NCBI GenBank assembly: GCA_050014855.1
Contig: JBEKCN010000001.1
Span: 1-31,500, forward strand
Direction: 5' to 3'
DNA length: 31,500 bases
Source: Streptosporangiaceae bacterium
GTDB taxonomy: Bacteria; Actinomycetota; Actinomycetes; Streptosporangiales; Streptosporangiaceae
A program made the position numbers and the translations under genes. Position 1 is the first letter of the stretch, and the number at the start of each line of letters is the position of its first letter. The notes beneath the pieces were generated by a model. It was not told where the DNA came from, ran no database searches, and was given only the letters and a program-made list of their open reading frames with translations. This document shows, one piece after another, positions 191-3,572 of the stretch.

Positions 191-817
191 TCAGGCGGAC
201 TCTTCGCCATCCGCCGACGCGGGCTCCGCGGACTCCTCGTCCGCGGACTCCTCGTCCATGGGGGTCGCGTCGGCCGCCGTCCCGTCCTCAGCCTGAACAG
301 ACCCGGCCTCATCGGCCGTGTCGGCACTGGCGGCAGCCGACTCGGTACCGTCGTCGGCGACCGCGGTGTCCCCGGCCGTCTCCGTGGCTTCGGTGGCGGG
401 AGCGGCCGCTGGCGCCTCGTCCCGCGACCGGCGGATCCGCCGGCGCGGCCGGGACGTCACCTCGTCCCGGACCAGCTCGATCACGGCCATCGGGGCGTTG
501 TCGCCCTTGCGCGGCCCGATCTTGGTGATCCGGGTGTAACCGCCCGCACGCTCGGCGAAACCCGGCCCGATCTCGGTGAAGAGCGAGTGCACGACGCCCT
601 TGTTGTTCACGACCGAGAGCACACGCCGCCGCGCGTGCAGGTCGCCCCGCTTCGCGAACGTGATCAGGCGCTCGGCGACAGGACGCAGCCGGCGCGCCTT
701 GGCCTCGGTCGTGGTGATCCGCCCATGCTCGAAGAGCGCGGTGGCCAGGTTCGACAGAATATGCCGCTGGTGGGCCGAGCTGCCGCCCAGCCGCGGCCCC
801 TTGGTGGGCGTGGGCAT
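191..817 (-). CDS. rplQ: 50S ribosomal protein L17 with long acidic C-terminal extension
   Basis: [41 protein letters not shown]...[25 protein letters not shown]; follows rpoA. Confidence 0.98.
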
Positions 818-857
818 TCGTTTCCTCTTTCGGTGTCAGTTGCTGGCTAGACGTGCG

Positions 858-1874
858 TCAGTACTGCTCGGTCTCGACGTAGCTGTCGTCCTCGTCGGGC
901 GCGTAGTTGTCCACCGCGCTGCTCGGGTCGAACCCGGGCGGGGAATCCTTGAGGGCCAGCCCCATGTCGATCAGCTTCTGCTTGACCTCCTCGATGGACT
1001 TCGCACCGAAGTTGCGGATGTCCAGAAGGTCCTGCTCACTGCGCGACACGAGCTCGCCGACGGTGTGGATGCCCTCACGCTTGAGGCAGTTGTACGACCG
1101 GACCGTGAGGTTCAGGTCCTCGATCGGCAGGGCCAGGTCCGCGGCCAGGGCCGCGTCCGTGGGCGACGGGCCCACGTCGATGCCCTCTGCGTCGACGTTG
1201 AGCTCGCGCGCCAGCCCGAACAGCTCGACAAGGGTCTTACCGGCGCTGGCGACCGCATCCCGCGGCCGGATCGAGGATTTGGTCTCCACATCCAGGATCA
1301 GCCGGTCGAAGTCGGTCCGCTGCTCGACACGGGTCGCCTCGACCTTGTAGCTCACCCGGGTCACCGGGGAGTAGATCGAGTCGATCGGCACCCGGCCGAT
1401 CTCCTGGCCGGGCTGCTTGTTCTGGGTGGCCGAGACGTAGCCGCGGCCGCGCTCGACGGTGAGCTCCATCTCGAGCTTGCCCTTGCCGTTCAGCGTGGCG
1501 ATGTGCAGCTCGGGGTTGTAGACCTCAACGCCCGCGGGCGGCGTGATGTCCGCCGCGGTGACCTGGCCCGGCCCCTGCTTGCGCAGGTACATCACCACGG
1601 GCTCGTCGTGCTCGGAGGAGACGACCAGGCCCTTGAGGTTGAGGATGATGTCGGTGACGTCTTCCTTCACGCCCGGCACGGTGGAGAACTCATGCAGGAC
1701 TCCCTCGATGCGGATGCTGGTAACGGCCGCTCCGGGGATCGACGACAGCAGCGTGCGGCGGAGCGAGTTGCCGATCGTGTAACCGAATCCCGGCTCCAGC
1801 GGCTCGATGACGAACCTGGACCGGGCGTCACCTATCTGCTCTTCCGTCAGGGTGGGACGCTGAGCGATAAGCAT
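858..1874 (-). CDS. rpoA: RNA polymerase alpha subunit
   Basis: [28 protein letters not shown]; alpha-[19 protein letters not shown] and NFGAKS. Confidence 0.99.
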
Positions 1875-1887
1875 GTGGTGCCTTCCT

Positions 1888-1953
1888 TCCCGTGACGCCC
1901 GCTATTTGACGTCACGATTCCGTCCCGCGACGCCCGCTATTTGACGTCGCGAT
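1888..1953 (-). promoter_or_regulatory. Tandem pair of 31-nt hairpins abutting the rpoA Shine-Dalgarno (candidate ribosomal-protein leader)
   Basis: Copies at 1888-1918 and 1923-1953 are identical except for one compensatory pair (U-A versus C-G) in a 7-bp stem. Function is inferred. Confidence 0.7.
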
Positions 1954-2015
1954 GGTGCCGGCGACCGCGTGGCCGCCGGCTCCCCCCGGCGCGGGGCCAG
2001 GGGGAAGCTAGCTGC

Positions 2016-2642
2016 TTACTTCGAGTAAAGCTCAACGATGAGCTGTTCCTGAACCTGCGTGTCAATCTGCGCCCGGACCGGCAGCGCGTGTACCAGGATG
2101 CGCATCTGGTCCGGGACGACCTCGAGCCACGCGGGAACCTGACGCTCGCCGGCCTCGGCCTGCGCCACGACGAACGGGGTCATGTCGCGCGACTTCTGCC
2201 GGACCTCGATGATGTCGTTCTCGGCCACCCGGTAGGAGGGGATGTCCACCTTCTTGCCATTGACCGTGATGTGGCCGTGCGTGGTGAGCTGGCGGGCCAT
2301 GTCCCGGCTCTTGGCAAAGCCGGCCCGGTACACCACGTTGTCCAGGCGGCTCTCCAGGATCTGGAGCAGGTTGTCGCCGGTCCGGCCGTGCCGGCGGGTG
2401 GCCTCTTCGTAGTAGTTGTGGAACTGCCGCTCCAGCACGCCATACATCCGGCGGGCCTTCTGCTTCTCGCGGATCTGGAGAAGGTACTCGCTCTCCTTGG
2501 GGCGGTTCCTGCCGTGCTCACCCGGCGGGTAAGGCCGGATCTCGATCGGGCACTTCGGCGAGTCGCACTTGGCGCCCTTCAGGAACAGCTTCATCTTCTC
2601 GCGGCGGCAGCGCTTGCAGTCCGCGCCTGTGTCTCGAGCCAT
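2016..2642 (-). CDS. rpsD: 30S ribosomal protein S4, Cys-containing zinc-binding type
   Basis: DCKRCRREKMKLFLKGAKCDSPKC, LESRLDNVVYRAGFA and S4 RNA-binding domain; alpha-operon position. Confidence 0.98.
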   Translation of the reverse strand: MARDTGADCKRCRREKMKLFLKGAKCDSPKCPIEIRPYPPGEHGRNRPKESEYLLQIREKQKARRMYGVLERQFHNYYEEATRRHGRTGDNLLQILESRLDNVVYRAGFAKSRDMARQLTTHGHITVNGKKVDIPSYRVAENDIIEVRQKSRDMTPFVVAQAEAGERQVPAWLEVVPDQMRILVHALPVRAQIDTQVQEQLIVELYSK

Positions 2643-2660: not shown

Positions 2661-3065
2661 TCAGACCCGGCGCCGCTTCGGCGGCCGGCAGCCATTGTGC
2701 GGAACCGGGGTGACGTCCTGGATCGACCCGACCTCCAGGCCGGTCGCCTGCAGCGACCGGATGGCGGTCTCCCGGCCCGAGCCAGGGCCCTTGACGAAGA
2801 CGTCGACCTTGCGCATGCCGTGCTCCATCGCGCGGCGCGCGGCGGCCTCGGCGGCCATCTGCGCGGCGAACGGCGTCGACTTGCGCGAACCCTTGAACCC
2901 GACCTGCCCGGAAGACGCCCATGAGATGACGGCTCCGGCCGGGTCGGTAATTGAGACGATGGTGTTGTTGAATGTGCTCCTGATGTGCGCGTGCCCATGA
3001 GCAACGTTCTTCCGCTCCTTGCGGCGCACCTTTTTGGCGCCCGCATTGCGGCTCCTCGGCGGCAT
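2661..3065 (-). CDS. rpsK: 30S ribosomal protein S11
   Basis: [39 protein letters not shown]. Confidence 0.99.
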
Positions 3066-3191: not shown

Positions 3192-3572
3192 CTACTTCTT
3201 GCCGGCCTTCTTCTTGCCGGCCACGGTCTTCTTCTTGCCCTTGCGGGTGCGCGCGTTGGTCTGCGTCCGCTGACCGTGCACGGGCAGCCCCCGGCGGTGC
3301 CGGATCCCCTGGTAGCAGCCAATCTCGATCTTGCGCCGGATGTCGGCCTGGACCTCACGGCGCAGGTCACCCTCGATCCGGTAGGTCGCATCGATCCAGT
3401 CCCGGAGGCGGATCAGGTCGTCTTCGCCGAGCTCATGGACCCGGGCGTCGGGGCTGACCCCAGTCGCCTGCAGCGTCTCCAGGGCCCGGGTACGGCCGAT
3501 GCCGTAGATGTAGGTGAGCGCGACCTCCATCCGCTTCTCGCGGGGGAGGTCAACGCCGGCAAGGCGTGCCAC
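3192..3572 (-). CDS. rpsM: 30S ribosomal protein S13
   Basis: [14 protein letters not shown] (GTG start), [31 protein letters not shown]. Confidence 0.99.

Follow-up and report, generated by a model that had tools for sequence, protein, structure and literature searches.

The alpha subunit of RNA polymerase is encoded by rpoA, an essential gene located within a ribosomal-protein operon, and it is needed in amounts other than those of the ribosomal proteins encoded by the neighbouring genes; we know of no mechanism by which actinomycetes uncouple the synthesis of alpha from that of the ribosomal proteins. In a Streptosporangiaceae bacterium (assembly GCA_050014855.1, contig JBEKCN010000001.1) the spacer preceding rpoA harbors two almost identical hairpins, which raises the question of what these structures are, whether they belong to an already described leader, what they might do for rpoA, and why there are two of them. 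The DNA analysed, hereafter referred to as the window, is a stretch of 31,500 nt, and the organization of the genes in this region is the following:

3192-3572, minus strand: rpsM (ORF list and translation)
2661-3065, minus strand: rpsK (ORF list and translation)
2016-2642, minus strand: rpsD, encoding S4 (208 aa), the gene upstream of the hairpin pair (ORF list and translation)
1981-2005 and 1957-1980, minus strand: two G+C-rich 10-bp hairpins right after the rpsD stop codon, with no U tract (folding and terminator scan)
1875-2015: rpsD-rpoA spacer, 141 nt, containing both hairpins of the pair
1881-1890, minus strand: Shine-Dalgarno (SD) region of rpoA, GGAAGGAAGG, 6 nt 5' of the AUG (sequence reading)
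858-1874, minus strand: rpoA, encoding the RNA polymerase alpha subunit (338 aa), with the AUG at 1872-1874 (ORF list and translation)
191-817, minus strand: rplQ, encoding L17 (208 aa), 40 nt 3' of rpoA (ORF list)

The Pfam domains RNA_pol_L, RNA_pol_A_bac, and RNA_pol_A_CTD are present in a homologue of rpoA (L158). As regards the two G+C-rich hairpins that follow the rpsD stop codon, the second (1957-1980; CCGGCGGCC-AYGC-GGYCGCCGG) is kept across the genus and the first (1981-2005) evolves fast.

The original prediction of two near-identical hairpins before rpoA proved to be correct. They are embedded in a 35-nt direct repeat, arranged head-to-tail (1883-1917 and 1918-1952), whose units are identical at 32/35 positions and share one RNAfold fold, that is, a stem UCGYGACGUC/GGCGUCRCGG of 10 bp, two of which are U.G pairs, closed by the 8-nt loop AAAUAGCG. 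The stem of 7 bp and the loop of 12 nt previously proposed describe the same hairpin, from which two inner pairs had been omitted. The scores reported below for the single copies were obtained with RNAfold and with the model R1, which was built from orthologous spacer sequences of relatives:

1925-1952, minus strand: distal hairpin, with 5' arm 1943-1952, loop AAAUAGCG 1935-1942, and 3' arm 1925-1934 (RNAfold -16.7 kcal/mol, z -3.7; R1 46.7 bits)
1918-1924, minus strand: inter-hairpin linker, GGACGGAAU region, a decayed SD copy duplicated along with the hairpin
1890-1917, minus strand: proximal hairpin, with 5' arm 1908-1917, loop AAAUAGCG 1900-1907, and 3' arm 1890-1899 (RNAfold -15.2 kcal/mol, z -4.6; R1 50.1 bits, E 1e-11)

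On the mRNA, each 35-nt unit consists of the hairpin followed by a purine-rich tail; it is GGGAAGGAA, the SD in use, in the proximal unit and GGGACGGAA in the distal one. The end of the proximal stem (1890) adjoins the SD (1881-1890), in agreement with what had been claimed, and the distance between the loop and the rpoA start is 34 nt for the proximal copy and 69 nt for the distal one. Both copies read GUC-AAAUAGCG-GGC, i.e., the loop AWAURGYG that is typical of the class (see below), with a C-G closing pair and inner pairs G-U-C/G-N-C. The 20-nt core occurs exactly twice in the window (expected 0.01), and the tandem pair represents its only occurrence in the 5.2-Mb, 83%-complete assembly, even when up to three mismatches are allowed; the scan of the window with R1 likewise returned the two copies alone, the next best match scoring 14 bits. 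A dispersed repeat of the REP/MITE type was considered and rejected, since only two copies exist in the 5.2-Mb assembly and, elsewhere, there is one high-scoring match per genome, with the exception of the genome G167.

Two of the differences between the units, T1893/C1928 and A1914/G1949, are pairing partners on the rpoA-sense strand, forming a U-A pair in the proximal hairpin and a C-G pair in the distal one, as had already been noticed; the 35-nt unit contains a third difference, T1887/G1922. If three differences are placed at random in 35 nt, simple arithmetic gives a pair of pairing partners in about 5% of the cases and a compensatory pair in about 2%. The comparative data (the relatives and the covariation across the class) make the possible chance origin of this single compensatory pair irrelevant.

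The presence of the hairpin was checked, as the original prediction had proposed, in the orthologous spacers of relatives (rpsD-rpoA or rpsK-rpoA, 29 loci from 11 families), and it was found in 29/29 of them, directly 5' of the rpoA SD. One long spacer deserves a separate mention, i.e., that of L017 (G011:C28), where 257 nt separate rpsD and rpoA and a stretch of N is flanked by G/C homopolymer runs, suggesting an assembly join rather than a biological feature. The element of the class was defined by means of the models R1 and R2, and the scan of whole genomes with R1 disclosed a high-scoring match in 64/151 genomes of the class, belonging to 30 families; the number of genomes is a minimum, as the whole-genome scan overlooked G083 and G033, in whose spacer the hairpin is present. 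Leaving aside the genome with the tandem pair described here, 63 genomes have a match, and in 62 of them there is one site, the exception being G167, and 28/29 of the best R1 loci are located directly before rpoA, the exception being again in G167. In this genome the second match (L119; G167:C157, about 270-300) shares a 19-nt identity with the core and scores 37 bits; it lies on the opposite strand of an unrelated coding sequence, where it encodes DARYLT. It is a chance match, the only false positive given by the model, and it shows that high-GC coding sequences can produce the core word by chance. The element occurs in at least 30 actinomycete families, Streptomyces included, and the mycobacterial group probably carries it as well, judging from loci that resemble Mycobacteriaceae.

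When the distinct 38-mers were folded, 73/76 gave the same 8-nt loop closed by a C-G pair, the three exceptions being L129 and the two chance pattern matches outside Actinomycetota (L094 and L095). Among the 38-mers, the loop is AAAUAGCG in 39, AUAUAGCG in 13, AAAUAGUG in 9, and AUAUGGCG in 9, with the consensus AWAURGYG. The stems, on the contrary, are 8-13 bp long and have many different sequences, the pairing being kept by compensatory changes. The distance between the C that closes the loop and the rpoA start codon is 30-40 nt, most often 32-34, and in most lineages the base of the stem is located 0-2 nt from the SD.

Double changes were detected at 7/10 pairs, and the covariation score of the alignment (0.252; the alignment is ungapped, so that sequences with a 1-nt bulge are misaligned in it) exceeds that of the shuffles (0.149 +/- 0.012; 0/500 reach 0.252) and of the slid controls (not above 0.124). 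In the species and copies of the genus, the Y-R pair that distinguishes the two hairpins of the window is C-G, U-A, or U.G, and C x A is never found. The idea that selection acts on the RNA structure, originally based on the two copies of a single genome, is thus borne out. Besides, U.G pairs are common, occurring in 37/56 and 27/56 sequences at two positions of the stem, and the antisense strand would have A x C in place of each of them; hence, the folded species is the rpoA-sense RNA.

In Streptomyces-type genomes, rpsD lies outside the operon and the hairpin is located 3' of rpsK. Since the hairpin stays before rpoA regardless of whether rpsD or rpsK is the upstream gene, the element belongs to rpoA. 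The window holds two copies, arranged in tandem, of an RNA element that acts in cis and is conserved in the rpoA leaders of actinomycetes.

Outside the class, a scan of whole genomes with the model (about 139 genomes from other classes of the phylum) gave no match. A targeted view of 25 regions upstream of rpoA outside the class yielded weak matches in three genomes from two families (L129, L130, and L133), with the loop GUCAUAUGGCGGGC in the expected position. A different conserved hairpin can be seen in other classes of the phylum (L132, L134, L137, and L140) between rpsK and rpoA, about 30-70 nt before the rpoA start; it has a stem GGCGGGG/CCCCGCC and a loop of about YAGNNRUGGMUGAU, and no Rfam match. 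In addition, three actinobacterial tandem repeats in other contexts (L075:4022; L086:505, minus strand; L091:5805, minus strand), with periods of about 23-42 nt, contain the word GTCAAAT(A/G)GCGG, which in L075 encodes Val-Lys-stop at the end of a gene; these repeats were discarded as copies of the hairpin, because the 12-nt word is present and no such hairpin is formed. Some of the genomes used are unpublished, namely G025 (L019) and G052 (L049) among the hairpin carriers and G184 (L145), G200 (L143), and G228 (L144) among the motif-free genomes of other classes, and the conclusions are independent of them.

The gene context, rpoA followed by rplQ, had suggested that the two hairpins might be copies of the predicted L17 leader (RF03132), a motif that has been predicted in Actinobacteria (PMC7247131) and that is actually found in the same GTDB family, where it scores 54.3 bits in L022 and 43.9 bits in L024 and served here as a positive control. 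This identification did not hold. Neither RF03132 (gathering score 34.9 bits) nor any other Rfam family has a match anywhere in the window at gathering score, and the search of Rfam at E<=10 in the 341 nt around the site (1780-2120), which had been suggested as a check, retrieved no ribosomal-leader family. The only matches at this threshold (a partial RNase P, mir-1908, TCV_Pr, and Ysr276) were dismissed as chance, the RNase P match reflecting a long-range complement. In the published motif, rplQ is the sole regulated gene (PMC7247131, Table 1), and in the relatives RF03132 is indeed located after rpoA and before rplQ (L022:579-638, minus strand; L024:2869-2928, plus strand; G107:C1:5261763-5261819), with two hairpins and the loop GGUACCUGAUACGGCC; each unit in the window is, instead, a single hairpin with the loop AAAUAGCG. 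The two elements also differ in their distribution, as RF03132 was found in 13/151 genomes of the class, including all 7 of genus g36, versus at least 64 for the rpoA hairpin. Furthermore, they coexist in at least 7 genomes, as in G107, where the rpoA hairpin lies at 5260554-5260587 and RF03132 at 5261763-5261819. Lastly, the rpoA-rplQ spacer in the window (818-857) is 40 nt long and the RF03132 model spans 56 nt, so that the spacer is too short to host an L17 leader; the genus to which the window belongs lacks RF03132. On this basis, the membership of the hairpins in RF03132 is refuted, and their being copies of the known L17 leader is hardly tenable; L17 itself could be the ligand of the rpoA hairpin. 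The existence of a separate L17 leader beside the rpoA hairpin in the same genomes argues for a distinct job tied to rpoA. What RF03132 shares with the rpoA hairpin is that both are predicted cis-regulatory RNAs of the same actinobacterial operon, supported by covariation only and with no ligand shown experimentally; they differ in their position (before rplQ rather than before rpoA), in the number of hairpins (two, over 56 positions), and in the conserved loop, as well as in the fact that RF03132 is missing from the window.

No family of Rfam 15 matches the rpoA hairpin loci of the window or of the relatives, and a literature search (on L17 leaders, on rpoA upstream regions, leaders, and translation, and on structured-RNA discovery) returned no account of this hairpin. 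What is doubled in the window is thus an rpoA leader hairpin of wide occurrence; since it has no counterpart in Rfam 15, current annotation pipelines miss it.

The surrounding region (1700-2700) was inspected for signals of transcription, and neither promoter-like sites (consensus scan) nor terminator-like sites with a U tract were found in it. Two TSSs assigned to rpoA in Mycobacterium smegmatis, which is not a confirmed carrier of the hairpin, are located inside rpsD, 292 and 320 nt upstream, and no TSS is assigned to the rpsD-rpoA spacer in the accessible part of the supplement of PMC6448022. The lack of a promoter or terminator near the hairpins and the far-upstream position of the M. smegmatis TSSs, as far as that part of the supplement goes, point to the hairpin being RNA inside a longer transcript. 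An intrinsic terminator or attenuator was rejected, given that no U tract is present and that the stems are followed by the purine-rich SD. The arms of the hairpin are an inverted repeat in the DNA too, so that a palindromic site for a transcription factor, or a promoter of rpoA, might be imagined; the pattern of conservation, however, with arms that vary with compensation and a loop that is invariant, is the opposite of that of a dimeric DNA-binding site. Moreover, the abundance of G.U pairs makes the structure strand-specific, the search for a sigma-70-like promoter was negative, and the M. smegmatis TSSs, in the accessible part of that source, are far upstream. We consider a DNA-level element very improbable. 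In the same context, a CRP/FNR-like palindrome was rejected because its spacing is wrong and its arms are not conserved.

The conservation pattern suggests what the RNA might do. An almost invariant 8-nt loop, AWAURGYG, is presented on a 9-10-bp stem that is free to change provided that it stays paired, and a trans-acting factor would recognise the loop in a sequence-specific manner. The bound factor would hinder the binding of the 30S subunit (the opposite effect, i.e., helping 30S, appears less likely), and in this way the synthesis of alpha, together with that of L17 encoded 40 nt downstream, might be set apart from the ribosomal-protein genes located upstream on the same transcript. The factor would probably be a protein having a single mRNA site besides its main job, and putative binders are the free alpha subunit or an intermediate of RNA polymerase assembly, L17, and S4, S11, or S13. 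A sequence-specific translational operator for rpoA (and possibly rplQ) is the model that best fits the invariant loop, the free stem, the fixed distance from the start, the contact with the SD, the single site per genome, the location inside a transcript, and the coexisting L17 leader, and it is from these features that we infer binding, the nature of the binder, and the sign of the effect; we give this model an even chance of being right.

Two further candidates for the role of the loop were set aside. An upstream ORF or leader peptide has no conserved start or frame, and the UAG of the loop alternates with UGG; a pairing of the loop with the beginning of the rpoA coding sequence would involve 4 nt at most, at a variable third-codon position.

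A different possibility is that the structure concerns the processing and stability of the message. The mRNA might be cut before rpoA, leaving a 5'-terminal hairpin that shields rpoA-rplQ from RNases that depend on the 5' end (RNase E/J), so that the half-life of the alpha message would differ and a second hairpin would add protection. Stable stems are indeed placed at the 5' side of the rpoA cistron, the separate G+C-rich hairpins of the upstream spacer could be 3' stabilisers of the rpsD message, and the accessible part of the M. smegmatis TSS data assigns no start to the spacer. A stem that protects, on the other hand, can do with any loop, but it is precisely the 8-nt loop, with its closing pairs, that is conserved best in the element across at least 30 families, and the distance between loop and start is held at 30-40 nt; as a weaker point, no cleavage site in the spacer is present among the M. 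smegmatis entries listed in the accessible part of the PMC6448022 supplement. Overall, a stabilising function seems to us rather unlikely.

A stable hairpin beside the SD could also work with no ligand at all. It might keep the SD single-stranded, by sequestering the G+C-rich sequence upstream, and possibly stack on the SD/anti-SD helix, or else the loop might be a standby or enhancer contact for the 30S subunit. The base of the stem lying 0-2 nt from the SD in most lineages, the fixed position with respect to the start codon, and the SD being mostly unpaired in the MFE fold are what such an initiation element would look like. Nevertheless, the loop region has no complementarity of 7 nt or more to 16S or 23S rRNA, plain insulation leaves the invariance of the loop unexplained, and recognition by the ribosome predicts more than one gene per genome, the element being essentially unique; we regard this explanation as unlikely. 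Hence, the invariance of the loop and its uniqueness in the genome argue both against a stabiliser and against a ligand-free or ribosome-directed element.

Coming back to the operator, the loop was compared with rRNA. Mimicry of an rRNA binding site is frequent, although not obligatory, in the operators of ribosomal proteins. In a genome of the same genus, allowing for at most one mismatch, the loop word is found in 16S and 23S rRNA at the chance rate only, as judged at the level of sequence, and the model R1 retrieves nothing within the rRNA genes on the rRNA strand. The hexamer UAGCGG, which the loop shares with the helix-23 region of E. coli 16S rRNA, was discarded, because the match in the 16S rRNA of the same genus is at chance level and a 6-mer is expected in 1.5 kb. 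The facts that the element tracks rpoA rather than the ribosomal-protein genes, that the L17 leader is separate, that no rRNA mimicry shows at the level of sequence, and that the site is near-unique in each genome allow a control exerted by alpha itself. According to this idea, a free alpha dimer, or an early intermediate of RNA polymerase assembly, would bind the AWAURGYG loop and shut off the translation of rpoA (and perhaps rplQ) throughout the class, and in the lineages with two hairpins 34-36 nt apart there would be one site for each protomer; this specific version is, in our opinion, doubtful. Autoregulation of rpoA is not, to our knowledge, an established phenomenon.

Translational feedback by RNA polymerase subunits has a precedent in E. 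coli, where beta and beta' are under autogenous translational control; it concerns another gene (rpoBC) and involves no comparable defined hairpin operator. We know of no control of this kind for rpoA. It is also known that E. coli rpoA escapes the control exerted by S4. The S4 operator of the E. coli alpha operon (RF00140, Alpha_RBS) and the predicted S4 leaders of Clostridia, Bacteroidia, Flavobacteria, and Fusobacteriales (PMC7247131) resemble the rpoA element in being RNA structures at a ribosome-binding site of the rpsM-rpsK-rpsD-rpoA-rplQ cluster through which a protein sets translation. Their place is the gene that opens the regulated block (rpsM or rpsD), and they fold into pseudoknots or multi-helix structures, whereas the rpoA element is a simple hairpin that is tied to rpoA alone and is retained even where the operon no longer includes rpsD. 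The closest likeness of design is with the operators of the MS2 and PP7 coat proteins, which are generally known to combine a short stem of free sequence with a conserved loop read by the protein, within the 30S footprint; these are phage systems with no sequence relationship to the rpoA hairpin, in which the rpoA start codon is outside the stem. A hairpin with an invariant loop, present once per genome at a fixed distance from the rpoA start, offers an easily mutated handle on the uncoupling of alpha from the ribosomal proteins, in a class that includes antibiotic producers (Streptomyces).

The doubling had been indicated as the unusual part of the structure, and this view is corroborated by the comparison, one copy being present in all the other genera sampled; the cooperative or steeper control that might follow from two sites is a speculation. 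In the genus to which the window belongs, the hairpin is doubled in 13 species, with 35-36 nt from copy to copy, and single in L013 and L015. A pattern scan of the genomes of 185,579 species disclosed 16 doubles before rpoA, which is a minimum, as the pattern demanded that both loops match. This genus accounts for 12/16 (MAGs titled 'uncultured Actinomycetes' or 'Streptosporangiaceae bacterium'); the remaining ones are Streptomyces polyrhachis with Streptomyces sp. NPDC051940 and Nakamurella sp. with the Actinomycetota MAG MFD01275. The Streptomyces and Nakamurella-like doubles combine identical loops and a spacing of 34 nt with stems that are wholly different between the two copies; these doublings arose independently. 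The doubling is thus rare and was found only in most species of this genus and two other small lineages.

As for the origin of the second copy, the 35-nt unit, comprising hairpin and SD, was duplicated in this genus, after which the upstream SD copy decayed and the upstream hairpin was retained, leaving two candidate binding sites 35 nt apart. It might be objected that slippage during replication produced the distal copy as a neutral by-product, the proximal hairpin alone being at work: the unit repeated head-to-tail includes a copy of the SD, and a single copy suffices in L013 and L015, within the same genus, and in all the other genera. However, the distal hairpin has been kept in 13 species, with about 4/28 columns variable and with compensatory states, while the SD copy decayed, and doubles with a spacing of 34-36 nt arose independently twice more; a merely neutral distal copy appears quite unlikely. 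The degree of variation is informative in this respect. In the first 120 codons of rpoA of the 13 doubled species, 49/73 fourfold-degenerate sites are variable (67%), and within the genus hardly a column of the linker, i.e., of the SD copy that arose with the duplication, is invariant; the variable columns are only about 4/28 in the distal hairpin and about 6/28 in the proximal one. The low variation of the hairpins compared with the fourfold sites and the linker indicates that both copies are under purifying selection and are not merely young. The variants with one and two copies found in close relatives represent a natural experiment on the number of sites.

Two minor observations were made in the course of the analysis. 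The first one concerns a possible alternative pairing of the proximal hairpin with the beginning of rpoA:

1822-1831, minus strand: rpoA codons 15-18, GUGACGCCCG, complementary at 10/10 positions to the 3' half of the proximal hairpin (1892-1901)

Within the window, the complementary word is present only at 1822-1831 and 1892-1901. Across the genus this duplex persists, with energies of -18 to -25 kcal/mol and in part by virtue of G.U pairs, and L006 shows one change that appears compensatory; the other genera lack the duplex. The MFE fold prefers the local hairpins over this pairing, which could represent an alternative conformer, predicted to enclose the SD and the AUG in a 60-nt loop. The second observation regards the Streptomyces-like genome G107, which contains a second rpoA-like sequence (G107:C1:5622837-5623430) that is 85% identical to the N-terminal 200 aa of the alpha subunit encoded in the window; its reading frame is 681 aa long, far longer than a normal alpha subunit.
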